This document shows positions 1,929-21,680 of a DNA stretch of 23,071 nt, one piece after another. This DNA is from Balanoglossus misakiensis (lineage: Eukaryota > Animalia > Hemichordata): the NCBI GenBank assembly GCA_040954595.2, contig CM082577.2:11108483-11131553 (forward strand), given 5' to 3'. Both the position numbers and the translations under genes were made by a program. Within the stretch, counting starts at the first letter, position 1, and each line of letters starts with the position of its first letter. The notes below the pieces were generated by a model. It did no database searches. It was not told the DNA's origin and saw only the letters and a program-made list of their open reading frames with translations.

Positions 1929-3300
1929 TACCACAATCGTAATATCAGCCTAGCTGTGTATAAATTAACGTCTTTTCGAATCGATTTTACTGTATATTTT
2001 AAGAAGTTAATGTTTCACTGTTGCTCATTGTTTTTGCCCAGTGACATGATTTATTTAAATAATAACACATGTTAGCGAGGGCAACATCACAATTTGAATC
2101 CTGCACAAGGGATGGTGATCTCTGACCATAATATTGATGATGCCCGATCGATACGAAATGATGTTAATTTATACACAGTCGGTATTACGATTGTTGTAGT
2201 TTTAAGAAGACCATTGATTCACGATATCCCTATACTACATGAACACATATAGCTAAAATTATTTGATACAAATGCTAGGCGAAATAAAATTGCATAGCAG
2301 GAGCTATGTAAATGCTTAAAAAAGAGCATAAAATTGAAGTGTGCCTCGTAAAATTATCTACTGTATCACATTATCTCAATCAATTGCTATCATGACAACG
2401 AAACATTGGAATGACACATGCAGTATACAAGGAAGTCAAAAGTTTTGATGAAGTTCATCATTAGTGGTGTTGCACACTATATTTTCAATCCCCCCAGCAA
2501 ACAGATTATGTCCAACGTGGAAATGTTGAAATTCCTGTCAACATTGCAAATTGTAGCGACGTGCGATGTCAATGGACATCTTTGCCGTGGCAGTGACGTA
2601 TAGATAAAAAGATTCATAGCTGATTTACTTACTAACAAGGTACCTTTATAGGGTGGATGAAAACAAACCAGGATTGTATTAGTATTATAAGTAGTAACTG
2701 TTGATTATTGTTTACTATTGAATTTTCTTTACCGTTTTCATTGTTTCAATTTATAAGTTGTTGTTTTTTTACGGAGGCAGTAACCAGGCCAGGACTCTGT
2801 TGTTCAAAACTTGACATTTTCAGTAAAACTTTACATCTAAGCAAAATTTCATTCAAGGCTCGTTTCAAAGGCTTTTGATGTACGCAATACTGCATTTGAA
2901 TGTCCCCGCACGTGACAGGGCTTTATCAGCTCTTGCCATGCCTGTCTGTGTTTACTGATGTTAGGAAACTATAACATATACAAGCTATGTTAACTAGGCA
3001 GTATGTTGGGTATTTTATGATTTGTAATAGAGAATAGAATAAGAAAACTGTCGGTGAGACACTGCACACAAAACAAAAGTGACGTAGTGAACATAAGGGT
3101 ATCTTGGCGTAATACGGAACAATATAATCATCATATTGTCCTCTAAGAAAATATACCTGAACTTGCATGTTATAGTAGACACTCTTGAAATTGCGGTTTC
3201 AGTTAACTGCTATGAATGTGATACAGCTTGAACTTAATATTAACATACGATATATTGATTTGTTAGTAAGGCTAAATACTTGATCTTGCTTACCAGCACT

Positions 3301-3326
3301 GTAGAGGTAGAGGTAGAGGTAGATGT

Positions 3327-3359
<33 letters not shown>
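3301..3359 (+). repeat. (GTAGAG)n / (GA)n compound microsatellite
   Basis: Seen directly. Confidence 0.9.
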
Positions 3360-3362
3360 CTT

Positions 3363-3621
3363 AAACTTCATTTAGTAAGAATTTCGGGTTCCAGGGGAGA
3401 TGTTGTTTGACATAACCGAGAGCAGAATATAATATTTCTCTGATTAGACATATTACACAAGTGTGTTGATGGCTTCAAAATGAAATATTCATTATTCATG
3501 GTAAAGTAGCTTGTGAAGCTATTTTTGAAGTTGTGCTTTTATACTATAATTTGAAAAATCTTTCAAGTCTTATTAAACAGAATAGGTAACCACATATTTT
3601 ACTCACCGACTGTGTATTATT

Positions 3622-3712
<91 letters not shown>

Positions 3713-4089
3713 TTGTAACCTAATTGAGACCAAATGACATGATAGGTATTCGCCACACTTCTTTGGACATAGGGGCAAAATGTATTATCTAAAAAGTTCT
3801 TCAAGTTTAAAGTAACAACCAGACTAAAACTTCATTTAGTAAGAATTTCGGGTTCCAGGGGGGATGTTGTTTGATGTAGCCGAGAGCAGTTTATAACATT
3901 TTTCTGATTAGACATATTACACAAGTGTGTTGATTGCTTCAAAATGAAACATGCATTATTCATGGTAAAGTAGCTTTTGAAGCTATTTTTGAAGTTGTGC
4001 TTTTATACGATAATTTGAAAAATCTCCTTTGTCTTAATTATTAAACAGAATAGGTAACCACATATTTTACTCACCGACTGTGTATTATT

Positions 4090-4177
<88 letters not shown>

Positions 4178-4360
4178 TAACAAAATTAAAACCAAATGAC
4201 ATGTTAGGTATTCGTCATACCTATTTGGACATAGGGGCAAAATGTATTATCTGAAAAGTAATTCAAGTTTAAAGTAATAACGAGGCTAACTTAAACTTCA
4301 TTTAGTAAGAATTTCGGGTTCCAGGGGACATGTTGTTTGACGTAACCGAGACCAGTTTAT
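3363..4360 (+). repeat. Tandem duplication, ~465-bp unit x ~2.15, each full unit containing a long (GA)n tract
   Basis: AAACTTCATTTAGTAAGAATTTCGGGTTCCAGGGG starts at 3363, 3827 and 4293; (GA)n at ~3623-3710 and ~4093-4173. Confidence 0.92.
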
Positions 4361-4507
4361 AAAATTCTGTTCCATACTAGACTTATATTAGTAGTGCACA
4401 GCGGCATACTGCATTTTACTGTAGTGTTATGTACTGTGTCGATATCGCTGGGAATACATATATTTCTTTTTTTCGGGATACCGGAATGCACTTTATAATC
4501 ATAATAC

Positions 4508-4789
4508 CTCTGTATTGCTGCTCGAGGAGAGCTAAATCAGTCCTTCCGATGTTTTCAAGAACAGCAAACAACTCATCCGTCTCATTCCACATCACAACTT
4601 TCTTTTCATCTAAAGTTTGCAATAGACCTTGGGTGGTGGTGATGTGGTTTAGATTTCCGACTTCAGGATGTCGTTTTCTTATCTCTGTCTTCATTCTCAA
4701 CAGTTCATCTATTATACAGCATGACAAAACGCATCAAATCTTTCGTTATGCCTCGTGCCATTTCTTCAGACATTAAAGTACAGCTGATT
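4508..4789 (-). pseudogene. Disrupted death-effector-domain (DED)-like exon
   Basis: Reads ISCTLMSEEMARGITKD / ELLRMKTEIRKRHPEVGNLNHITTTQGLLQTLDEKKVVMWNETDELFAVLENIGRTDLALLEQQYR, with the DED-type L-x-x-I-x-R-x-D-L motif. A 31-bp segment bounded by ATCT repeats (4707-4710, 4738-4741) shifts the frame. Candidate donor AG|GTATTA at 4507. The 5' side abuts the nested transposon cluster. Confidence 0.6.
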
Positions 4790-4846: not shown

Positions 4847-7821
4847 TTACGGGCCCAAGCCAAGCCAGGCTTGGGCCCGTATTGGTTTCGTTGGGGTTTT
4901 TTACGGGCCCAAGCCAAGCCAGGCTTGGGCCCGTATTGGTTTCGCTGGGGTTTTTCTGTCTTTCTTTCTTTCTTTCTTTCTTTCTTTATTCTTGGTTCCA
5001 TTCTTTATCGCTCTAGATCTCAGACACCGCTGCAGGTACAGTTCTCAAACTTGCTACAGTGGTCAAGGTCAATGAGTAGATGTGCAGTGACTTGTGAATA
5101 CTTAATTAGTCACGTGACATGGCGGCCATATTGGATTTTCTGAAAAAATGCAAATCTCAGATCTCAGAAACTGCAAGTCAGATTTACTTCAGATTTGGTG
5201 TGCTGGTAGAGTACCTTCTGCCCATCATTTTTGTAATTGGATATTTTGCTGTCAATGTTGCAGTTTTTTTGCTACAGTTGTTTTTCTGAAATCTGGTCAT
5301 AATTTCAAAAATCTTCTTCTCCAGAACCGGCGATAACCGAGTCACGCGGTTTGGGGTATGTGGTCACCAAGCTGAGGTCTATCAAGTTTGCGAAGATCAT
5401 TGTGATTGGTCGAAGATTATGGCGGCCATATTGGATTTTCGAAAAACCCTGGTAAAATTTCAAAAATCTTCTTCTCAAGAACCGGCGATAACTGAGTCAC
5501 AAGATTTGGTGTGTGTGGTCATTAAACATATGTCTATCAAGTTTGCGAAGGGGAATGTGATTGGTCAAAGATTATGGCGGCCATATTGGATTTTGTGAAA
5601 AACGATTAAAAAGTAAAAATTCCTTTTCTAGCCTAAAAATTGATAGCACAGAAATTATTTTTATGGATATGAATCATCATATGCCAAGAATAAGCTATAA
5701 ATATTTTGGTAATTTTGGCAATGACCTTTGACCTACTTTTGACGCATGATTTTTCTGCATATCTAATTCTAGGCTAACCAATAGGGCTATAAGTTTGGTT
5801 TTTGATGTATGTGGATTTGTATGTGATCCAAAAATTTTGCTACTTTTCATGACCCCTTTGACCTCTCCTGACCTCATTAAATATGCACATACCTAATTAC
5901 AGATGAACCAATAGACCTAGAGGTTTTGTTTTTGTTATACATGGACCAGTATGGGGTCAAAATATTTTGCCCAAATGTTGGGTGATCTCGGGTGACCTTT
6001 GACCTACTTTTGCGTATCTCGACATCCACAGCAGATACAGCCTTGGCGTTTGGAGGTATGGGGCCATAATGAAAAGCCAACGTTATAGGTCACCTGTGAC
6101 ACCTGCTTAACTCATTAATTATGTGCATACCTAATTCTAGGCTAACCAAAAGGGCTAGAGGTCTGGTTTTTGTTGGACACGGACCACTATGGGTCAAAAT
6201 TTTCTGCCCAAATTTTGGATGACCTCAGATGACCTTTGACCTACTTAACACTTAAACAGCACCAAACATAGATTTAACCTTGATATTTCATGGGATAAAA
6301 CAGCATTATTTTTCTACTCATTAATTATGTGCATATCTAATATCAGATCAGATAATAGAGCTTGGGCCCGGACAATGCTGCTTGCAGCTTTAATCTTTCT
6401 TTCTTTCTTTATTCTTGGTTCACTTCTTTCGCGCTCTAGATCTCAGACACCGCTGCAGGTACAGTTCTCAAACTTGCTACAGTGGTCAAGGTCAATGAGT
6501 AGATGTGCAGTGACTTGTGAATACTTAATTAGTCACGTGACATGGCGGCCATATTGGATTTTCTGAAAAAATGCAAATCTCAGATCTCAGAAACTACAAG
6601 TCAGATCGACTTCAGATTTGGCGTGCTGGTAGTATACCCTCTGCCCATCATTTTTGTAATTGGATATTTTGCTGTCAATGTTGCAGTTTTTTTGCTACAG
6701 TTGTTTTTCTGAAATCTGGTCAAAATTTCAAAAATCTTCTTCTCCAGAACCGGCGATAACCGAGTCACGCCGTTTGGGGTATGTGGTCACCAAACTGATG
6801 TCTATCAAGTTTGCGAAGATCATTGTGATTGGTCGAAGATTATGGCGGCCATATTGGATTTTCGAAAAACCATAGTAAAACTTCAAAAATCTTCTTCTCC
6901 AGAACGGGCGATAACCGAGTCACAAGATTTGGTGTGTGTGGTCATTAAACAGATGTCTATCAAGTTTGCGAAGGGGAATGTGATTGGTCGAAGATTATGG
7001 CGGCCATATTGGATTTTGTGAAAAACGATTAAAAAGTAAAAATTCCTTTTCTAGCCTAAAAATTGATAGCACAGAAATTCTTTTTATGGATATGAATCAT
7101 CATATGACAAGAATAACCTATAAATATTTTGGTAATTTTGGCAATGACCTTTGACCTACTTTTGACGCATCATTTTTCTGCATATCTAATTCCAGGCTAA
7201 CCAATAGGGCTATAAGTTTGGTTTTTGATGTATGTGGATTTGTATGTGATCAAAAAATTTTGCTACTTTTCATGACCCCTTTGACCTCTGCTGACCTCAT
7301 TAAATATGCATATACCTAATTACAGATGAACCAATAGACCTAGAGGTTTTGTTTTTGTTATACATGGACCAGTATGGGGTCAAAATATTTTGCCCAAATG
7401 TTGGGTGACCTCGGGTGACCTTTGACCTACTTTTGCATATCTCGATATCCACACCAGATACAGCCTTGGCGTTTGGAGGTATGGGGCCATAATGAAAAGC
7501 CAAAGTTTTGGGTCACCTGTGACACCTGCTTTACTCATTATTTATGTGCATACCTAATTCCGGGCTAACCAAAATGGCTAGAGGTCTGGTTTTTGTTGGA
7601 CATGGACCACTATGGGTCAAAATTTTCTGCCCAAATTGTGGGTGACCTCTGGGTGACCTTTGACCTACTTAACACTATATCAACACTAAACATAGATATA
7701 ACCTTGATATTTCATGGGATAAAACACAGCATTATGTTTGTACTCATTAATTATGTGCATATCTAATAATCAGATCAGATAATAGAGCTTGGGCCCGGAC
7801 AATGCTGCTTGCAGCTTTAAT
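4847..7821 (+). mobile_element. Middle HINE-like element, family 2 (head 4847-4900, body 6395-7821)
   Basis: 5' hairpin TACGGGCCCAAGCC-aagcca-GGCTTGGGCCCGTA (4848-4881); (TTTC)n resumes at 6395; 3' subTIR GCTTGGGCCCG (7787-7797) plus stem-loop GCTGC-tt-GCAGC (7804-7815) followed by TTTAAT. Confidence 0.75.
4901..6394 (+). mobile_element. Inner complete HINE-like element, family 2 (~1.49 kb)
   Basis: Same 5' hairpin (4902-4935), (TTTC)n at ~4960-4987, body highly similar to 6395-7821, 3' subTIR 6360-6370 and stem-loop 6377-6388. Confidence 0.78.
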
Positions 7822-8456
7822 TTTTTATTATTATTATTATTATTATTATTCTTCCCACTTTTAAAAACAGCCGCTATTCGAAGACCTTTGCACCCAATGA
7901 CTTGAAATTTGGCTCATAGGTAAAACTCAAAGCAAGTAATTTTTTGATCATGTCACTATGGCAACAGGTCACATGACCTGGCAGCCATCTTGGATTTAAA
8001 CTTTTAAATTGGTCTAATTTGCATAAAAAATGAAGAATCCAAATTCTGTTCAGAAACTTTGTGGACCATATGGCCAGGGTCCTATATGCCAAATTTCAAT
8101 GTCTAAGTCCTTGCCGATTTTGAGGAGATGATTTTTAAAGCATAATTTTTCATATTTTCCATGACCATTGGACCCAGCCATTGGCCTATACTTTCCATGG
8201 TTAAGCAATGGCCCCCTAGGATTTTAGATTTATGCCCAATATCTCAACATCCGCTGGGCTGATCAGCTTCAAATTTTGTGTGCAGCTAGCCTACCTTCCG
8301 ACAATCAGTTCCAACTGGAAAAAATAATATGGAAAATCGACCGATTTTTTTATATTAATTTTTTTATGAAATCTATACCTATACTTATTCCACTATACTT
8401 AAGCTATGGCCACATAGTTTTGTAGAATTCTGGTCGGTGCAATAGTCTGCAGCATA

Positions 8457-9600
8457 GGACCAAAATAAGAAGCCAAATTTAAGGCTCACCTGTGACACCT
8501 GCTCAACTCATTAATTATGTGCATACCTAATTCCAGGCAAACCAATAGGGCTACAGGTCTGGTTTTTGTCGGACATGGACCAGTATGGGGTCAAATTTTT
8601 TCCCCACATTTTGGGTGACCTTGGGTGACCTTTGACCTACTTTCGCATATCTCAGCATCCAGAGCAGATACAGCTTAGGTGTTTGGGTGGATGGGACCAA
8701 AATAAGAAGCCAAATTTAAGGCTCACCTGTGACACCTGCTTAACTCATTAACTATGTACATACCTAATTCCAGGCAAACCAATAGGGCTACAGGTCTGGT
8801 TTTTGTCGGACATGGACCAGTATGGGGTCAAATTTTTCCCCCAAATTTTGGGTGACCTTTGACCTACTTTCGCATACCTCAGCATCCAGAGCAGGTACAG
8901 CTTAGGTGTTTGGGTGGATGGGACCAAAATAAGAAGCCAAATTTAAGGCTCACCTGTGACACCTGCTTAACTCATTAACTATGTGCATACCTAATTCCAG
9001 GCAAACCAATAGGGCTACAGGTCTGGTTTTTGTCGGACATGGACCAGTATGGGGACAATTTTTTTCCCCAAACTTTGGATGTCCTTGGGTGACCTTTGAC
9101 CTACTTTCACATATCTCGGCATCCAGAGCAGGTACAGCTTAGGTGTTTGGGTGGACGGGACCAAAATAAGAAGCCAAATTTAAGGCTCACCTGTGACACC
9201 TGCTTAACTCATTAACTATGTGCATACCTAATTCCAGGCAAACCAATAGGGCTACAGGTCTGCTTTTTGTCGGACATGGACCAGTATGGGGACAATTTTT
9301 TTTCCCAAACTTTGGATGTCCTTGGGTGACCTTTGACCTACTTTCACATATTTGGCATCCAGAGCAGGTACAGCTTAGGTGTTTGGGTGGACGGGACCAA
9401 AATAAGAAGCCAAATTTTAGAGTCACCTGTGACACCTGCCTAACTCACTAATTGTGTGCATACCTAATTCCAGGCAAACCAGTAGGGCTACAGGTCTGTT
9501 TTTTGTTTGACATGGACCAGTATAGCGTAAACATTTTCTGCTCATATTAAGCGTGACCTCACGTGACCTTTGACCTACTTTTCCACATCTCAGCATCCTC
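8457..9600 (+). repeat. Internal minisatellite, ~237-bp unit x ~5
   Basis: GGACCAAAATAAGAAGCCAAATTT starts at 8457, 8694, 8921, 9158 and 9394 (periods 237, 227, 237, 236). Confidence 0.93.
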
Positions 9601-10889
9601 AGCACATACACCCTTGGCATTTGGAGTGATAGAACAACTAATGCAGTAATTAAATATGCACAAATCTATCTCCAGGCGAACCAATAGGGCTAGTAGTGTC
9701 TCGAAACCCGCTTATTGCTGTTCACAGCTATATTTGATCTAACATTGGTGAATAATTTTCTCATAATAAAATTATCCATCATGAGGAAACATATCTTTTC
9801 ACTTGTTTATCTAGGTTTGCAAGTTTACAGCCGTTCAATATTTCCTGTTACTCTACCTAAATGTATTCTGTTAATTATCTTAAGTAGAAGACATTCCATT
9901 GTGGAATAGTCTGCGCATACCTGGTGTTATTTCTCGATGGAGTTTTTCCTTCAGAGCATTCCATTCTCTCCTTGCGTCGTCTGGTATCCATGACGCCATG
10001 GTTATATCCTATGTTTAAGACATACAAAGGCTGCGAACGGGAAATAACATTCGCATGTTATAACATCATGTATGCATATGAAAGAATACCCCAAAATGTT
10101 TCCGGGTTGGAGTTCTGTCGTCCGATTTCAATTTGATTGATTCGCAAATTTGGAGAATCGCGAGAGGAAACAAACCTATACATTGCGTCAACGAAACACC
10201 ATCATTTGCTAAGTGGTATTGAATTTTATTTTGTTTTTAAAATGTTACTGGTTCAAGCGTCTCTATCGGCTCTTGATGATGCTCAATTTAAAATTGTTAC
10301 ATACAGTTTGAGTTTGGTTTGAAGTTATTGTAGAGATCTAAACAATGAGAATTATAATTCCGGTAGTTTTAATCACTGTTTTATGTTTACTAAATAACAT
10401 TACGTTGAAGTATTCATGATATTTCCAATAGTCAAAAGACCCAGGAAAAGTTAGAAACGCAGACGTTTACTTATTTTCACCCAAACCCTCTGCTGGATAA
10501 AGACCCGAGTTTTCAAATTGTAGATTTCAATAAGGTGACCTACCGTGTATCCAAAGGTCTTTCGTGCGAGTGGTCGAATCCAACGTCGATCACAATGTGG
10601 TCAAGAATTACTGCCAAAATAATCACACAACGCATCAACAGAATGATAAATGACAGTTCAAGAGACATTATGGATTAACATTCTGAAATTTCCCCCTTAC
10701 ATCGATGAGTGTTTATAAAATAGTTTTCTCTCAGCTTGACACCCCCCCCCCCCTTCACCACCGGAATTGTTGCGCTTTCAAAATAAATTTCAGAATAAGC
10801 ACGCACTGGTACAGTGTCACCCTGGTAGTTTGGACTTATTGTAGTAAATGCAAATACTAAACTCTTTGACGTCCACACACTATACGCGT

Positions 10890-12087: not shown

Positions 12088-12474
12088 GTCCGAGAGCAGT
12101 GTGCGCGTCAGATATAACACTGCTCCTCGTACGCGAAGAATTCTGAAGAGCGACTTTCATTTTAACATAATGACCATAACAGTTTTCTTTGAATGTCATG
12201 TAGACGGCTTTGCCTAAATATTTTGCTTCTTTTCCGTACATTAACTTTCAACTTGAAAATAAACTTTGGGTAGAAATACGAGTAACTGAGGTTGTCGCTG
12301 GTGGATCAAATTGTTCGTGTGTTCCAGATTATGACGCCATTCGTTCGAAAGTTGACAACGCGATAGAACTTTCATAGTTACGATCAACCACCACACAACT
12401 TTATTTCGTTGCTGTGCATCGCTCATCCATTTCGGAAGAGAGGAAGTTATCGCCGCAGTCTGAAAATCCTAACA

Positions 12475-13873
12475 ATGACTGTTATCCGCGTGAGTGGTGG
12501 GGCCGAGGACCCCACCGACCTCGAGATTATCGCCCTGGATTCAGCGTCAGCCGCTGGCCACAATGCTCGGTCGGACGTCGACGAGGCGACACCTCCCACG
12601 GTGACCGACGATCTTATTAGTGGGTGCGTGGACGACGTGAAGACTGGCACGACAGGGGAGGACTCCGCCCGGATTGTGATCACCAAACCAGCGCTGATTT
12701 TGGGAGAGACAGTCGAGGATGGTGATGTAGCCAAGGAGACGGTCAAAAGCAAGAAGAAACGCGGTCGCCAGGGGAAACGGGGAAAGAGAAGCGGAAGTAA
12801 GAAGTCCAGAGGAAGTAAGAGGAAGAGCGAGGAGAGCGATTCCATCGCTGCTCATCAGGAAAACACCGCAAAGCAGCCGCCGGAGAAGCTGGAATCCACC
12901 GACTCCGAGTCTAACCCGTCATGCTTCGCCGCACTTCGTAAACGTCTGAACGGGATTAGAGAATGGTTTCTGTTGAGATTCAATCGCACCGTGTCCATCG
13001 GCCCATCCGACTCAACCACCAGTTCCATGTTTCCTCAGATTGGATCCAGGAGCGCCTCTGATCACGTTTTCGGCAATCAGAAATCTTCACTTGATAGTGG
13101 CCTTGGAAATAACAAGGGGAAGTGGTCAGTCGGTAAGTTAATACACTTTTTTAACTGAGTAGGACTAATTTTTAATTGTTCTGGTTTGAGAAATGTTCTC
13201 GAAAGTTGTTTGTTTATAAACCCAAAGAGCAATGTAAACAACTTTTGAACATCATATGCTTCGAATTATCAAATTAAACATAAAATACCTCAATTCTAAT
13301 ACGTACCAGTGACAGAGTACAATTTATAACTTGCGATTTTTTCCGCCGTTTTTGATAATGTGTTCCAGAAAATAATCTTGGGATTGGTTTTGAAATCAAC
13401 AGGTGTCTAAAATTATGGTTGTATTTTCTTCAGGTAACGGGCCAAACTACATTGGTCGCCTTGATGGCCACACTTCTAGCATCTCAGCCAAGACATCCAT
13501 CGCCGACGGACGCAAAAGCGTAGCCTATAAACTGGAGTTCGACATCTCCAAGCCGGTGAAAGCGCCACCAAGGCACGTCAGTTTTCTGGACAGAAGACCT
13601 AACACTCCCCACACCGTCTACAATCTGAACCAGAAGATAAAACAAGCGGAAGAGAGACGGAGGGAGGCGGAGGAGTACAAGAGCGCAAAGGCCGCTCTGA
13701 TGAGTGCGGGGATCACCGCGACTGTGGCAGGTGACGGCGAACAAAGTCACGCCATGAAGGAGGAGGCCAAGAAGCAAGAATTGGCAGAAAAGGCGCGCAG
13801 GGAATACTGCGAGCTACTCCGGAACAGGATCCGCGAGCAGAAGCGGCTGCAGGGACAAAAGAAGGGGAAATAG
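12475..13873 (+). CDS. Two-exon gene (12475-13132, 13434-13873; ~365 aa), low-complexity/basic N-terminus and stathmin-like (STMND1-type) C-terminal region
   Basis: ATG in ACAATG context; donor G|GTAAGT at 13133; acceptor TTTTCTTCAG at 13433. The phase-1 junction joins the 249-aa and 156-aa ORFs in frame, and the exons are GC-richer than the intron. VAYKLEFD...APPRH...TVYNLNQKIKQAEERRR resembles the stathmin-family pattern. The product call is tentative and an upstream exon cannot be excluded. Confidence 0.72.
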
Positions 13874-15574: not shown

Positions 15575-15655
15575 AATAACTTAATATTTAAAGCCTTATC
15601 ACTTCGCTCAAGGATATGCCTATTGTTATAGGATTGGGTCGAAGTTCTGGGTGGC
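15575..15655 (-). repeat. Split direct repeat B2 (81 bp, 3' terminus)
   Basis: Identical to 15873-15953. Confidence 0.95.
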
Positions 15656-15773: not shown

Positions 15774-15878
15774 CTGTTGCAAATGAGGGAGAAAGTCCGG
15801 CTGCATTGTTACCTATTTATACCCCACAAATTTGCATATTGCGGATCCATATCACTCAGTGATGCGGCTTTGAATAAC
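15774..15878 (-). repeat. Split direct repeat A2 (105 bp)
   Basis: Identical to 21576-21680. Confidence 0.95.
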
Positions 15879-15893
15879 TTAATATTTAAAGCC
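15866..15893. other. Putative tyrosine-recombinase site (11-6-11) at the B1/A2 junction
   Basis: GGCTTTGAATA-acttaa-TATTTAAAGCC; the arms are 10/11 inverted matches. Confidence 0.7.
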
Positions 15894-15953
15894 TTATCAC
15901 TTCGCTCAAGGATATGCCTATTGTTATAGGATTGGGTCGAAGTTCTGGGTGGC
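15873..15953 (-). repeat. Split direct repeat B1 (81 bp), overlapping A2 by AATAAC
   Basis: Identical to 15575-15655. Confidence 0.95.
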
Positions 15954-16148: not shown

Positions 16149-16154
16149 TTTATT
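16149..16154 (-). terminator. Candidate polyadenylation signal AATAAA downstream of YR
   Basis: TTTATT on the + strand, ~125 nt after the YR stop. It is followed on the minus strand by a GU/U-rich tract (TGTGTATCTCTTTTGTGTG). Confidence 0.45.
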
Positions 16155-16277: not shown

Positions 16278-17558
16278 TTAATGACTACTGGGAAAGGCCT
16301 TAGAGAAGCCCACCAGGTCGTTCATATATTGATAAGCCTCTGCTTTCTGGTCTAAATTATCCACTATAGCCATTAAGCTATCTGCTATGGCTCCAACTTG
16401 AGTTACTTTTGCTAGTTGCATATAATAGTTGGCTGTCTCTTCTGCCCGCCAACCCACATGGCTCATTAGCGCATGAAGGTCATTACCCTCCATAGCCAGG
16501 GAAATAGCGCAAGCACTTCTGCAGCCATGAGGAGTTTCACCTGCATCTATCCCTACTTTTTGTAAGTAGGTTTTTAGTCGGGAATACGCCAATTGAGATG
16601 AGAAAGGTTTTTGATCCGTAGAGCCATGTGAATTGATTGGCCGGAAGAGATAACCCGTTGACAAATCGATTCCAACACTCTGCGCCAGCTTGAAATAAGC
16701 TTCGACGGTGTTAACTGGACATACGAAGGGATCGGCGCATCGCTTAATTGCAAATACATTAGTAGACGAGCCTCTCAAGGTTTTTCCAAAAGTATGATTG
16801 AATAATAATCCAGAGTTATCGGGAAAACGCATAATTTCCTGAGTCTTGACATGACCTAGGTCATGTGCCCTGTCCCCTGAAAAGGATAACATCTTAAAAT
16901 ATGCGAGATCCCTTGCCAATACGTACATGCGAGCTGGTGCGGTAGATGACACCATCTGATTAAGTATATGCTCAAAAACCAGCTTCAATTTATTTATAAA
17001 AAGGGGTGTGGCCTGTTTTGCTGTTATCATGGCTCTTGCTTGTTCTTCTGCTATTTTCTTTAAGTATCTAGCGACCAAAGGCGATTCTACCGGGTTAGGC
17101 CTATCTAAACCGACCTGTGAGGAAAAGGCTTGATAGAATGTTTTCAATTTTGAAACCATATTCTTAGCTGTGGTAACACGAATTCTCTTAGGGCATTGGC
17201 ATTGTTGATATCCAGGGAGACCTAAATAGGGACAGATTATTGCGTGTACTTGTGTTTTAGCATCCTTGTCCTTATAAATGAGAAACCGAACTATATCTTG
17301 TGCTGATGCCATCAATAATGATTTTGGTTCATCCAACCCTGTTAGGAAAGCTTCGAATTGTTGGATTAAACGATCCTTTTGTATGTCGTGTGCCGACCGA
17401 TTACCCAGCACTTCCTTCATTCTACTGTCGATGGCTTCAAGATTAAGTGTGCTACCACTATCATGGATGGGCTGCTGTGGCTGTAGGGGCACTTTTGTGC
17501 CACACGCCTTGCATCGTTGGGAAGCACCATTGGTCGTACCACACATCCAACATGCTTG
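16278..17558 (-). CDS. Tyrosine recombinase with N-terminal CxxC...CxxC Zn finger and ALOG-type DNA-binding domain (3' exon)
   Basis: Catalytic set, numbered on the 422-aa ORF: R226 (SGDR), K255 (GKT), H340-x-x-R343, W366 (HVGW), Y375. ALOG-like KTQVHxxxC...CxCP...NP...VARYL...EQARA. Acceptor TTCATTTCCTCACACAG at 17559 opens QACWMC in phase 0. Confidence 0.93.
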   Translation of the reverse strand, partial: QACWMCGTTNGASQRCKACGTKVPLQPQQPIHDSGSTLNLEAIDSRMKEVLGNRSAHDIQKDRLIQQFEAFLTGLDEPKSLLMASAQDIVRFLIYKDKDAKTQVHAIICPYLGLPGYQQCQCPKRIRVTTAKNMVSKLKTFYQAFSSQVGLDRPNPVESPLVARYLKKIAEEQARAMITAKQATPLFINKLKLVFEHILNQMVSSTAPARMYVLARDLAYFKMLSFSGDRAHDLGHVKTQEIMRFPDNSGLLFNHTFGKTLRGSSTNVFAIKRCADPFVCPVNTVEAYFKLAQSVGIDLSTGYLFRPINSHGSTDQKPFSSQLAYSRLKTYLQKVGIDAGETPHGCRSACAISLAMEGNDLHALMSHVGWRAEETANYYMQLAKVTQVGAIADSLMAIVDNLDQKAEAYQYMNDLVGFSKAFPSSH

Positions 17559-17732
17559 CTGTGTGAGGAAATGAACATTAATATAATTACCAAATCAAGA
17601 GGTTTTTCTTTTTCTTTTCCTTATTGTTGCTGTTATTCTGTTGTTGTCGTTATTTTTCGTCTTTTCTACTTCTCATATTGGGCTAAAATGTCATACATCC
17701 TGACTCGAGCGCAGTGTACACCCATTGTGTTC

Positions 17733-19910
17733 TCACTCATGACGTACCAATTTAACAGCGAACAGTGCACACGGAGCTCTACATGGCTTATACCCCTCTC
17801 GTGAGGGCGCTAGGATTACTCCCATGTCACCCTCCTCAGCCAGTTTTACGAATTTTGACGCTGACTGCCGGATCTCCGGCCAATACGAGGGGTAAGCGCA
17901 GCGTTTATGGACGATGATGGTAGCATTCAAATGCATTTGCCTAACGTGTTTAATGACGGCATGCGTGAGATGGAAAGGCGGATACACGTAAATTCTATCC
18001 CTTGGCGAGAAGTGATAGTGGAAAAAATTTACCCCAGCACTATCGGCTTGTGGAAATGGGGACACAAAACTCTCGAGTCTGGCGTTCGATGACGTGGCCA
18101 TAGCGTCAATAGAGTGGGGGCCACACTCCTTCTGCACTATAGCCCATGCTCTATCTGACAATTTCGCGTGGCACATGTCTAACTCTCTAGAGGCAAAATC
18201 GGCTAGATTCTGGTGTGAGCGGACGTGAGCAATTGTTAGGCGGGTATTATGGGTAACACAGAAGTGGAAAATTTTCTTTAGCAATTCATTTAACTGCACA
18301 GATTTAGATCCCGGGTACCCCTGGTTCCAGGCATGCACAAGGATTAATGAGTCTGACAAAACGTCGAGACGAGAATTTGAAACTTCTTGGCTAAATGCCG
18401 TGAGGGCTCTACAAAGAGCTTCAGTTTCTTTATCGATAATCGACTTTTTTTGCCATTCCTCCTCCCAACCATCACTTACGGTAACTGCTTTTTCCGAATG
18501 TGGCTGAAACACCGCCCCCCATTTATATGAACTGGCATCAGTGTACATTTTCAGTATAACGTGAGTTTCGTCTGGCCACCTAAAAGTCCCTGCTGTCTCG
18601 ACAATTTCCAACCATTGGCTGAGTTCGCGTCTGAGAGGGCCTTTAATCTGAACAAGGCTTCGTGCTGACACTTGCGCACTGGCCAGTGCGCGAGCCATTC
18701 GTCGTATATACAGCCTAGCGCACGGAATCGCGAGGGAGAACGAGATACACTTTCCCATTATTTTTTGCAATTCTGTGACCAGGATTGCAGATCGTAATAA
18801 GGCGTATCTAACCAACTCTACAAAACGTGCCTTCTTTAAATCTGGTATACTGAAGGCCCGCTGGACGGAATCTACCGTCATACCCAGGAGGACCAAGGAT
18901 TGGACTGGCGAAAGTACACTTTTTTCCAGGGCTATAAAGTAACCTGCGTCAATACATAATTTTAACAAGATGTAGGCAGATGCTTCGGTCAGCTCGAGGC
19001 TCGTCCAGTGGCTCGCATTTAAGCGGAAGGCCCCTGCAATTCTCAAAGGCCCCCCATGCCTGTCATCTATATATTGCAAGCATGGAACACCGAGCATACG
19101 CGCGTGACTAGTTATTGTGTACCCTAACGTATGATAAATGTATGCTGAAGATTTCCAACCAAACGGCAATGTGTTATTAACAAACCAGTATCCGGCCCAC
19201 TGGAAACCAAAATATGTGCGATCCTCCTCTCTGATAAACACATGATCATACCCACTTTTGTCATCTGATTTAAAATGATAATCATACTGGTTCAGATAAC
19301 GTGAAACTTCTATTAGTTTATCTAGTTTAAAGGGTTTATCTACCATCCACAGATTAAGGTACCTCATGTCGATACACATCCGGGGCTTTTTAGGCTCTAT
19401 TGTGATAGGCATCACAATATGCGGTGGAGGATCAATTCCGACCAAACCTACAGCTGATATCGCCCCGGTTTTAATTTTTTCATTAATCGTACTTGATATA
19501 AAATCTATAAATTGTTGACAAGCTGGGGCATTTGCAAAGACCTTTGCAGGAGGGGTAGGAGTGTCGTAGAAAACTCCCTTAAATGTTCCCTTAAACGGCT
19601 GAAAATATTCAGTCACGTTAGCCCCTTCCCTAATCCAATTCATAATTTGAGCCTGATTACTAGTGTCATGAGCCATTTGCCGCCATATCGCCTGGTGTCT
19701 GTGTACTTCCCCAGCTATGAAGTCGTGAGGGTTTCGGAACTGGAGGAGGCTGGGAGATGCCTTGCACAAACCGGCTGCCACTTCATGTGGGTCCGGGGAC
19801 TGAGCACTTCGGTCCTGTTGAGGGACTCCCTCAAGTGTTACCCATGCGTAAGTAGAACGTCTAACTGGCCAAAGTTCAGAAGAGAATTTTTCCCAGGGCT
19901 GTGGTACCCC
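17733..19910 (-). CDS. Pol: reverse transcriptase - RNase H - DNA N6-adenine methyltransferase-like domain (3' exon)
   Basis: RT: KSDDKSGYDH, LPFGW, YIDD. RNase H: TDAS, KETEA, LSDS, NLADFASR. MT-like: IDAMA, YVYPPF. Acceptor TTGTCTTACAG at 19911 (phase 0). The upstream part of the 808-aa ORF runs through a poly(A) tract and looks intronic. Confidence 0.93.
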   Translation of the reverse strand, partial: GVPQPWEKFSSELWPVRRSTYAWVTLEGVPQQDRSAQSPDPHEVAAGLCKASPSLLQFRNPHDFIAGEVHRHQAIWRQMAHDTSNQAQIMNWIREGANVTEYFQPFKGTFKGVFYDTPTPPAKVFANAPACQQFIDFISSTINEKIKTGAISAVGLVGIDPPPHIVMPITIEPKKPRMCIDMRYLNLWMVDKPFKLDKLIEVSRYLNQYDYHFKSDDKSGYDHVFIREEDRTYFGFQWAGYWFVNNTLPFGWKSSAYIYHTLGYTITSHARMLGVPCLQYIDDRHGGPLRIAGAFRLNASHWTSLELTEASAYILLKLCIDAGYFIALEKSVLSPVQSLVLLGMTVDSVQRAFSIPDLKKARFVELVRYALLRSAILVTELQKIMGKCISFSLAIPCARLYIRRMARALASAQVSARSLVQIKGPLRRELSQWLEIVETAGTFRWPDETHVILKMYTDASSYKWGAVFQPHSEKAVTVSDGWEEEWQKKSIIDKETEALCRALTAFSQEVSNSRLDVLSDSLILVHAWNQGYPGSKSVQLNELLKKIFHFCVTHNTRLTIAHVRSHQNLADFASRELDMCHAKLSDRAWAIVQKECGPHSIDAMATSSNARLESFVSPFPQADSAGVNFFHYHFSPRDRIYVYPPFHLTHAVIKHVRQMHLNATIIVHKRCAYPSYWPEIRQSASKFVKLAEEGDMGVILAPSREGYKPCRAPCALFAVKLVRHE

Positions 19911-19966
19911 CTGTAAGACAATTAACAAGGTATGTATGAGAAAAGAGATCAGCCCGAAACCTACAG

Positions 19967-19973
<7 letters not shown>

Positions 19974-20001
<28 letters not shown>
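19974..20001 (+). repeat. Poly(T)28 tract (poly-A on element strand) in the gag-pol intervening sequence
   Basis: Seen directly. Confidence 0.9.
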
Positions 20002-20274
20002 GGCTCGAGGGAATCCCTAGACAGGACCTCGCAAACGCAAGGTTGCAAAATGCAAAGGGCCACATGGGCCTTCCCTGTGTGCGGGATATAACGGTAATGC
20101 AAAATGGCAAAGCATGCATGGAGAAATCGGGAACAGGGACAAGGGGGGAAAAGAAACACAATCTACAGTTATTCCTCTCGAACGAAATCTTTAATATAGA
20201 TACTCAAATGAATTACATATCAGTGTGTGAACCATGAAAAGAGCGTGCCACGCAAATCACAAAGTCCGTGTAAT

Positions 20275-20736
20275 CTAAGACTTCTTTTTAGTAGGGCAAG
20301 CTCTGGCCATATGGCCAGCTTCTCCACATGCATAGCAGGTAATGTTATTAACATTCCTTCTCTGTCGGTTGTATGGCTCATATCGTTGACTCTGGGGGTG
20401 ACGCGGCGAGTGTCGCAAAAACTTGGTAACTTTCGCCGCGATCTCTTCCTCCTCCTTGTTCCCTAGGAGTAACACCAACAGACGCCCTGCATCCTTTCCA
20501 AATTCGTTGGATTCGAACTGCGCCAGGACAGCTCTAAATCTAGATAACTTGGGGTGGGCGGCTACAGTAGCCCTATCCACCAGCGCCCGCAAAGCAGTAA
20601 TTAGCTGTTGACGAGTTGACAGTGCGGGTGTGTGAGCCATTTCCATAACTTTTGTTAAAGCATCATCTACAGACGCAGTCTCTGCTATATCCTGCAGTCG
20701 TTTCACCTGCCGTTTGAGTGCTTCTAACTCGCTCGC
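20275..20736 (-). CDS. Gag-like protein with CCHC zinc knuckle (3' exon)
   Basis: CYACGEAGHMARAC (CX2CX4HX4C) near the C-terminus after a helical region. Acceptor TGCTTGGTTTCAG at 20737 (phase 0). Confidence 0.88.
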   Translation of the reverse strand, partial: ASELEALKRQVKRLQDIAETASVDDALTKVMEMAHTPALSTRQQLITALRALVDRATVAAHPKLSRFRAVLAQFESNEFGKDAGRLLVLLLGNKEEEEIAAKVTKFLRHSPRHPQSQRYEPYNRQRRNVNNITCYACGEAGHMARACPTKKKS

Positions 20737-20898
20737 CTGAAACCAAGCACAGTACATGGTATTATTGCTGATATAGTTCAAGCTTATGAACGTAATTCTT
20801 ACTCGTTTTGTGCAAGCCACCGCATACAGTATCAATCCATTGATACCCCTGAAGCACCCATCACTCGTCACTGGGTTCCTGCCTAACCAATCACATCA

Positions 20899-21019
20899 GG
20901 CCACCCTCGCAGGCACTCGCCTACCTGGGCCTTAAACTATCGGCACCCTCGCAGCGACCCCGGGTTACTGCCTGGCCGATCTCATGGCCACCCTCGCAGG
21001 CGTTCAGCCTACCTGGGCC
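20899..21019. repeat. Three imperfect ~44-bp GC-rich repeats inside the predicted first intron
   Basis: CACCCTCGCAG...CCTGG(G)CC at ~20899-20931, 20942-20977 and 20986-21019. Confidence 0.75.
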
Positions 21020-21357
21020 ACGCTCAACATAAACGTGTATGACATACGAAAACATAGGGTACATGACTAAAACGTATCGAGAGAGAGAGTGAAAGAGAGA
21101 GCAAAAGTGAGAAAGAGAACGCAAGATACGCACCTGTCGCTCATACCATATCGACAGGCACACACACCTGCAGAGGAGCTGGGGGAAACAGCCAGCAACC
21201 ATAAAAACTACCTAGGACGGAAAACAGCGTGGAACACACGAACACACCGCGAAGAATGAGAGAGAGAGAGGGAGAGCGAGCGAGAGAAACAACGGAAAGA
21301 AGCACGTTACCAGCCACGCACCAACGCAGAAACCACGTAATCGAAACAGGAGCTCAC

Positions 21358-21555
21358 CTGGCTGGTATCCTTTTTTGTGACTGGTTGGGGCTCTCCTCTA
21401 GCTGTCGCACTAATCGCAGGACCAGTAGCAGGCTGCGGATTTCCACCGTGTAACGCAGCAGCAGGAGGCGGCTGTGGGGCCGTAGACGCCCGGGCTGGCC
21501 GGTGCTGTTCAACGAATGCCGTAGCGGCTGGTGCAGCTGGTTGCGACGAAGCCAT
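21358..21555 (-). CDS. Putative shared leader exon (66 codons, Ala/Pro/Gln-rich) of the retrotransposon
   Basis: First ATG downstream of repeat A1 (ATCATGG context). It ends at a strong phase-0 donor CAG|GTGAGC (21357). Unspliced, the frame stops after 82 aa. Confidence 0.7.
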
Positions 21556-21575: not shown

Positions 21576-21680
21576 CTGTTGCAAATGAGGGAGAAAGTCC
21601 GGCTGCATTGTTACCTATTTATACCCCACAAATTTGCATATTGCGGATCCATATCACTCAGTGATGCGGCTTTGAATAAC
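21576..21680 (-). repeat. Split direct repeat A1 (105 bp, 5' terminus)
   Basis: Identical to 15774-15878. Confidence 0.95.
21616..21639 (-). promoter_or_regulatory. Candidate Pol II promoter in repeat A: octamer ATGCAAAT plus TATAAATA
   Basis: Minus strand ATGCAAAT (21639-21632) and TATAAATA (21623-21616), ~60 nt upstream of the leader ATG. The same motifs occur in A2. Confidence 0.6.

Follow-up and report, generated by a model that had tools for sequence, protein, structure and literature searches.

Several described forms of tyrosine recombinase (YR) retrotransposon resemble the element reported here. ALOG-containing DIRS1-like retroposons of marine invertebrates encode a Gag zinc knuckle, reverse transcriptase (RT)-RNase H, an adenine methylase-like region and a YR combining a zinc ribbon, an ALOG domain and a catalytic domain, and carry direct terminal repeats (Iyer and Aravind 2012, PMC3537659; this and the other sources given by PMC number were covered in part, and what is said of them is limited to that part). 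Echinoderm-form Pat1-like elements have the order A1-ORFs-B1-A2-B2 (ORF, open reading frame), a Gag zinc finger and a methyltransferase (MT)-like region (Szitenberg et al. 2014, PMC4157794), and Ngaro elements likewise have split direct repeats, A1-ORFs-B1A2B2 (PMC8547959, PMC4157794). Apart from the methylase- or MT-like region, for which the match is weak, these features, as well as the YR orientation of the Pat1-like elements, are shared by an element of ca. 6.1 kb on the minus strand (21680-15575) of a 23,071-nt stretch of the genome of the hemichordate Balanoglossus misakiensis (assembly GCA_040954595.2, contig CM082577.2, positions 11,108,483 to 11,131,553; hereafter the window, with position 1 as its first letter). 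Based on its sequence, we consider it probable that this element makes Gag, Pol and YR by splicing one coding leader exon to three alternative phase-0 acceptors.

In its expression strategy, the element appears closest to foamy viruses and less close to plant Copia elements. Foamy viruses use a single major 5′ donor with alternative acceptors and translate Pol from its own spliced RNA, apart from Gag (PMC5294762). Their gag is expressed from unspliced RNA (PMC5294762), whereas Gag of the present element is predicted to be spliced too; furthermore, the shared exon is coding here, which would place one N-terminal peptide on three proteins, and the integration enzyme is a tyrosine recombinase. 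The likeness is limited to expression strategy, as the long terminal repeats, protease, DDE integrase and env of a foamy-type retrovirus were not found in the element. In plant Ty1/Copia elements, splicing to a subgenomic GAG RNA likewise balances structural and enzymatic proteins (PMC5580714; BARE, PMC3735527), although there the short GAG mRNA results from one splicing event in an element with a single ORF, without a shared coding leader or three acceptors (PMC5580714). Among the YR elements, all metazoan copies of the ALOG group were inferred to be inactive (PMC3537659), in contrast to the three intact frames, identical repeats, leader and three acceptors of the present element. The covered text on Pat1-like elements gives no expression strategy (PMC4157794), and the likeness drawn here is by features, not by tree. 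Unlike Ngaro, which is without an MT domain, the element has a conserved 155-aa MT-like tail on Pol, which speaks against Ngaro, albeit with a weak Dam match. Of 28 DIRS1-like elements, half have long ORF overlaps, which are usually absent from Ngaro (PMC3266345); therefore, non-overlapping ORFs alone are not unusual.

The leader exon (21358..21555; minus strand, as are all features of the element below) was delimited from its ORF and by comparison with Ptychodera flava. It comprises 66 codons (198 nt), is rich in Ala, Pro and Gln, and contains an FVxxH motif; its ATG, the first one 3′ of an initiator-like TCATTT, lies 20 nt after repeat A1. The phase-0 donor at its end, CAG/GTGAGC (21352..21360; first intron base 21357), ranked first of 364 GT sites when splice sites in 21700-15570 were scored with a weight matrix of general metazoan frequencies, not trained on the host, and the coordinates given for leader and donor in the original prediction hold. 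That prediction also placed three pyrimidine-rich phase-0 acceptors directly before gag (20737), pol (ending at 19911) and YR (ending at 17559). Their positions and phase were reproduced. The sites are not equally strong: the pol acceptor is the strongest (rank 3 of 400 AGs), followed by the YR (rank 11) and gag (rank 15) sites, and the pyrimidine tract of the latter is weak. When joined to the leader, the exons give in-frame products of 219 (Gag), 791 (Pol) and 492 aa (YR), as had been claimed, and after each acceptor only frame 0 is long (153, 725 and 426 aa). The three frames are all intact and, again as predicted, none overlaps. The gag-pol spacer (19911..20274; 364 nt) contains a 28-A run and the pol acceptor with its polypyrimidine tract and branch-like CTCAT/CTGAT, and the pol-YR spacer (17559..17732; 174 nt), defined by ORF and acceptor positions, ends in the YR acceptor. 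Intron 1 (20737..21357; 621 nt, delimited by the donor and the gag acceptor) would be absent from all three predicted mRNAs. On the unspliced RNA, the first ATG opens a product of 82 aa, the same value on recomputation as originally given. Counted from the acceptor, Pol has its first Met at residue 79 and YR at residue 5, inside the first CxxC (CWMC), with 32 and 77 ATGs upstream on the unspliced RNA, respectively. These late Mets had been correctly noted, while an in-frame ATG seven codons upstream of the gag acceptor (20755..20757), a possible alternative start, had been missed.

The leader-to-gag join is matched at the junction by an independent gene model. The gag exon (20275..20736) encodes 153 aa after the phase-0 acceptor, including a C-terminal CCHC zinc knuckle (PF00098, E 3.8e-07, above the cut-off). 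RefSeq proteins of the acorn worm P. flava are the closest relatives with a name (Gag 93% and Pol 63% identical), in keeping with a hemichordate host. The P. flava RefSeq protein XP_070546524.1, 93% identical over Gag and 68% over the leader, reads KDTNQAGELEALK, in which the leader end KDTSQ is followed by the gag-exon start ASELEALK at the predicted junction. Given that leader and gag are 621 nt apart with several stops between them, only splicing can join the two, and the predicted join is thus supported by this model. Among the 13 Gag matches examined, 11 were P. flava RefSeq models, all of which start with a low-complexity extension. The FVxxH motif was present in all eight aligned P. flava Gag models, amid otherwise divergent leaders, so that conservation of the leader is at the protein level. 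In the relatives described below, gag acceptors were harder to score than those of pol and YR: the best site was in phase 0 in 6 of 12 among those listed, the phase-0 site ranked third in one relative (L036), the site was off phase in four broken copies, and it was off the contig in L009. XP_070546524.1 (P0292) itself starts at an ATG (MDPQYAN) whose equivalent in the window (21652 region) is stop-closed and falls within repeat A, 5′ of the TATA box, likely reflecting a model or copy difference.

The YR exon (16278..17558; 426 aa) encodes an N-terminal zinc ribbon (weak match, E 0.018), an ALOG domain (PF04852, E 6.7e-17) and a recombinase domain (PF00589, E 1.2e-08) with the residues R-H-R-W-Y in place. 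Scanning metagenomes with an alignment of 41 YR sequences yielded 79 loci (kept from the best 80 of 176 confirmed stretches), ca. 29%–51% identical to the protein of the window. The zinc ribbon was recognised in 21 of the 79, and 20 had upstream DNA. In all 20 of these loci, representing 15 families at 80% identity, the best AG within 90 nt 5′ of the zinc ribbon was in phase 0, the distance being exactly 42 nt at 17 loci, 36 nt at two and 45 nt at one. The acceptor was an in-frame TAG in 14 of the 20, so that the ORF starts at a stop codon, and no Met preceded the first Cys in 16. With a looser anchor that included decayed copies, phase 0 was found in 27 of 44 relatives and in 22 of the 28 with an open upstream frame (the window itself was removed, and 36 entries with no anchor or too little DNA were skipped). 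Three relatives in which the zinc ribbon has been lost (L009, L036 and L054) retain a phase-0 acceptor. YR proteins called from raw DNA (P0007, P0035, P0057, P0075, P0083, P0095 and P0103) show a Phe/Leu/Ser/Ile stretch and a Gln 15 residues above the first Cys. The Mytilus RefSeq YR XP_052067764.1 has a leader of ca. 52 aa at its N-terminus, and a second Mytilus model reaches the same YR residue via a different upstream exon; the meeting of the two models at one residue fixes the boundary 12 codons above the Cys. In a search for transcript-derived spliced proteins among the 120 YR matches listed, the only leader-type N-terminus directly before a zinc ribbon was an NCBI model. Leader-like N-termini in P0322, P0364, P0367 and P0466 (among the 32 of 150 representative matches examined) were not counted, their source being unestablished.

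A similar pattern was observed for pol. The pol exon (17733..19910; 725 aa) encodes RT (YIDD; PF00078), RNase H (PF17917) and a C-terminal adenine methyltransferase-like region. A phase-0 acceptor followed by an open frame was found in 13 of 18 scoreable loci (10 of 14 families; three further loci lay too near a contig end), 57–77 codons upstream of a conserved motif, and in eight of the nine copies whose downstream frame is intact. In control windows inside pol ORFs, the best-AG phases were 51/55/38 (n = 144) and 19/18/17 (n = 54), showing no phase bias, and the median acceptor scores (−0.3 and 1.9) were much below those of the real acceptors. Set against this flat control, the constancy of where the acceptors lie in relatives, and of their phase, indicates that the pattern is more than chance. 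In addition, the Branchiostoma RefSeq Pol XP_078673738.1 carries a 73-aa Gln/Pro-rich leader at its N-terminus. At the level of sequence and gene models, the analysis establishes the anatomy of the element, conserved acceptor phase and position, in-frame joins and leader-type N-termini in gene models of three animals. The claim of alternative splicing from one leader is supported, for leader-gag by a RefSeq model matching at the junction and for pol and YR by conserved acceptors together with the leader-like Branchiostoma and Mytilus models. As for the Pol tail, the Dam match (PF05869) to the last 155 aa was weak (E 0.052, below the cut-off), the same family matched 2 of 40 homologues (best 1e-4), and no methyltransferase structure was among the 60 PDB matches listed; the tail is conserved, and an MT-like domain after RNase H is the favoured assignment. 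Some Pol homologues (P0245, P0278) have an SGNH-hydrolase-like domain (PF13472) at their end.

Leaders could also be recognised in related DNA. ATG-led leaders rich in Ala, Pro, Gln, Gly, Asn and Glu and ending at a phase-0 G/GT were found in 5 of 15 relatives (L008, L012, L017, L022 and L054), whereas none of the 15 reverse complements and none of 60 shuffles of each passed the same rule. The leader ATG follows repeat A1 by 62 nt in L012 and 40 nt in L017, a placement similar to that in the window. In L036, a leader is visible by eye and fails the composition cut. A complete set of leader, donor and three phase-0 acceptors is present in L008/L001, L036 and L054. A strong acceptor before each ORF would also suit a polycistron resolved by trans-splicing, with the acceptors receiving a spliced leader rather than the element's own exon. 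This can hardly be the case, since a non-coding spliced leader needs no phase 0 and supplies no missing Met, while RefSeq models have the cis leader fused to Gag and show its conservation at the protein level.

Several points weigh against the proposed splicing from one leader. The junctions are predictions from sequence and gene models, and the RefSeq proteins are likewise predicted models rather than RNA reads. The leader rule was fixed after leaders had been looked at, and no leader passing it was found in 10 of the 15 relatives, mostly broken or truncated copies. The in-frame gag ATG at 20757, preceded by 13 ATGs on the unspliced RNA, lies above a weak acceptor, and P0295 shows the same arrangement; an early Met follows the acceptor in 4 of 20 YR and 5 of 13 Pol relatives. 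The gag ATG and the early Mets would fit an alternative in which only gag (or nothing) is spliced, the AGs are incidental, and Pol and YR arise by reinitiation or by internal, possibly non-AUG, initiation, for which the AUG-independent reinitiation of L1 ORF2 provides a precedent. We regard this as very improbable, because a polypyrimidine-AG in phase 0 at all 20 YR loci (17 of them at one distance) is not expected from the flat control, conserved coding sequence (the zinc ribbon and the Pol N-terminus) lies upstream of the first Met, and spacers of 174–364 nt with many ATGs are ill-suited to reinitiation.

Further points against a single shared leader concern the structure of the 5′ part. The 5′ part may be longer or consist of two exons, judging from L036 and some of the gene models, and the P. 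flava Pol isoform X1, XP_070561811.1 (63% identical), starts at an internal Met without the leader. Isoform X2, XP_070561812.1, apparently from the same locus, consists of leader plus Gag; this copy is perhaps disrupted further upstream, or the leader is perhaps not used in frame by its Pol RNA. Splicing could accordingly be real while pol and YR receive a longer or different 5′ part, such as leader plus gag start, an additional 5′ exon or an exon from an internal promoter. A phase-0 CAG/GTGAAA donor at 20706, 10 codons into gag, a helix resembling the Gag start between leader and YR in Saccostrea XP_062580551.1 and P0367, the two candidate 5′ coding exons of L036 and the leaderless isoform X1 would all agree with it. 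However, the 20706 donor lies at a Gln-Val pair where P0293 and P0294 have Gln-Ile, so that GT is impossible in these two; in the Branchiostoma Pol and Mytilus YR models a low-complexity leader is attached directly, and no donor in the element outscores that of the leader. On balance, we consider this alternative unlikely, albeit the least so of those discussed here, and retain splicing of the single leader to all three acceptors as the preferred interpretation. An extra, more conserved N-terminal domain was observed upstream of the low-complexity leader in L036 (1028-1225), P0116 (Saccostrea XP_062580551.1), P0338 and P0367; in this subgroup it apparently occupies its own exon.

The variation in a relative ca. 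94% alike, recovered from a small share of three sequencing runs and behaving as DNA, fits the proposed exon-intron map. Its YR contig (1363 nt, 78 differences), pol contig (2014 nt, 107 differences) and leader plus donor contig (195 nt, 18 differences) had no gaps, and gag had a single 3-nt insertion. In contrast, indels of 1, 2 and 4 nt were found in the untranslated region (UTR), intron 1, the gag-pol spacer and the 3′ region (12 of 24 indels were listed). Frameshifting indels are thus confined to spacers, UTR and other parts outside the proposed exons in these contigs. Among the five joints listed from these runs, none matches a predicted splice; DNA-like runs are uninformative on expression. 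Viral contigs gave one pattern match and no relatives.

These results allow a mechanism to be proposed. TATAAA (21623) and an initiator-like TCATTT (21588) were seen by inspection within A1, near its end, and are the likely promoter and start site, so that RNA polymerase II would start near 21588. The donor at 21357 would be joined to one of three competing acceptors to yield Gag, Pol or YR with a common N-terminal peptide. Since the element is without a protease, we propose that acceptor competition sets the Gag:Pol:YR ratio, replacing frameshifting or proteolysis. A candidate polyadenylation signal, AATAAA (16149..16154), ca. 125 nt 3′ of the YR stop and upstream of B1, may end the mRNAs ahead of the 3′ repeats. 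The unspliced full-length RNA, which is nearly non-coding, would serve as the genome and template for reverse transcription.

Intron 1 contains three related GC-rich stem-loops with a period of ca. 89 nt (20880..21025; folding and TRF, period 89), the fold having a z of −2.91 with none of 200 shuffles equally stable. Of 11 relative intervals tested (L008 and L001 being one family), seven had tandem repeats of at least 20 nt in the corresponding region, and tandem or structured first-intron repeats lie at 1847-2406 in L008, 620-1665 in L012, 3482-3843 in L017, 1873-2600 in L022, 613-925 in L030 and 842-1128 in L065. These repeats are candidate packaging or splicing-control signals. Because the stem-loops lie downstream of the donor, they would mark unspliced RNA only, every spliced mRNA losing them, similar to retroviral packaging signals, which mark unspliced RNA. 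We hypothesise that they select the unspliced RNA for reverse transcription; such selective copying would explain how the introns survive retrotransposition. It seems somewhat more probable than its contrary that a widespread animal YR-retrotransposon clade (hemichordate, coral-associated, amphioxus and bivalve) fully separates the roles of genome and messenger, with every protein being the leader spliced to one of three acceptors, the leader tagging Gag, Pol and recombinase (perhaps for co-assembly without a polyprotein), and only the unspliced RNA with intron-1 repeats being copied.

The element extends beyond 16278..21555, the interval originally assigned to it, which omitted the terminal repeats. 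At its 5′ end, split direct repeat A1 (21576..21680; 105 nt) is 100% identical to A2 (15774..15878; 105 nt), and B1 (15873..15953; 81 nt), which overlaps A2 at TTATT, is 100% identical to B2 (15575..15655; 81 nt) at the 3′ end, giving the order A1-ORFs-B1-A2-B2 in direct-repeat comparison. TTATT is common to both element ends without a target-site duplication, as expected from recombinase-mediated integration of a circle, the established mechanism for this group of retrotransposons. Pfam searches of the three ORFs identified the RT-RNase H and tyrosine recombinase that define the DIRS order, with no match to a protease or to rve (DDE integrase). The repeat order with internal repeats after YR is that of the echinoderm-form Pat1 elements (PMC4157794), with which the Gag zinc finger also agrees, and the YR combines ALOG and catalytic domains with a weak N-terminal zinc ribbon, as in the ALOG retroposons (PMC3537659). 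Among the 25 longest inverted pairs listed, none joins the element ends in the manner of strict DIRS1-like elements, which have inverted termini with an internal complementary region. The element is thus an intact split-direct-repeat, Pat1-like, ALOG-domain tyrosine-recombinase retrotransposon. The 3′ end of repeat A (15774 and 21576) is pyrimidine-rich, terminates in CAG and has the best acceptor score in the element; it was considered as a fourth acceptor and rejected, since repeat A has no terminal AG in L012, L017 or L036. In L001 and L008, elements are arranged head to tail with a period of ca. 6.1 kb, and the first L001 copy is without its 5′ part.

Elsewhere in the window, a 105-aa frame on the minus strand (4416-4733) has a weak death-effector-domain match (PF01335, E 0.017) and is possibly a host exon or relic. 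Two GC-rich, charged frames on the plus strand (12367-13158, 263 aa; 13394-13873, 159 aa) have no convincing Pfam match and are probably host exons. Arrays of ca. 465-nt repeats with GA microsatellites, as well as repeats with periods of 237 nt and 1423 nt, occupy 3280-4370 and 4970-9700.

Introns have reportedly been mentioned for some fungal YR elements. No passage on natural splicing of DIRS-order ORFs was found in the covered parts of PMC7192593, PMC4157794, PMC2632668, PMC3537659, PMC3266345, PMC6681497, PMC9210276, PMC3783388, PMC8547959, PMC5718144, PMC1965478 and PMC5633606; the main text of PMC3537659 has no occurrence of splic, intron or exon. Likewise, no description of a three-acceptor scheme for DIRS-order elements was found in the literature, a search that did not extend to the founding papers, Repbase and the Iyer and Aravind supplement, which may bear on novelty. 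The literature examined does not deal with the way in which DIRS-order elements, which have neither protease nor polyprotein, produce three proteins. Joining one coding exon to three acceptors would solve this in a distinct manner, and more completely than in foamy viruses or plant Copia elements, in that splicing would extend to Gag and leave a genomic RNA with almost no coding capacity. The scheme raises the tractable question of how an intron-rich retroelement keeps its introns. Furthermore, hundreds of database proteins whose start was called at an internal or false site would have their N-termini corrected, and some copies that were considered dead, with ORFs that start at a stop codon or have no ATG, may be intact.

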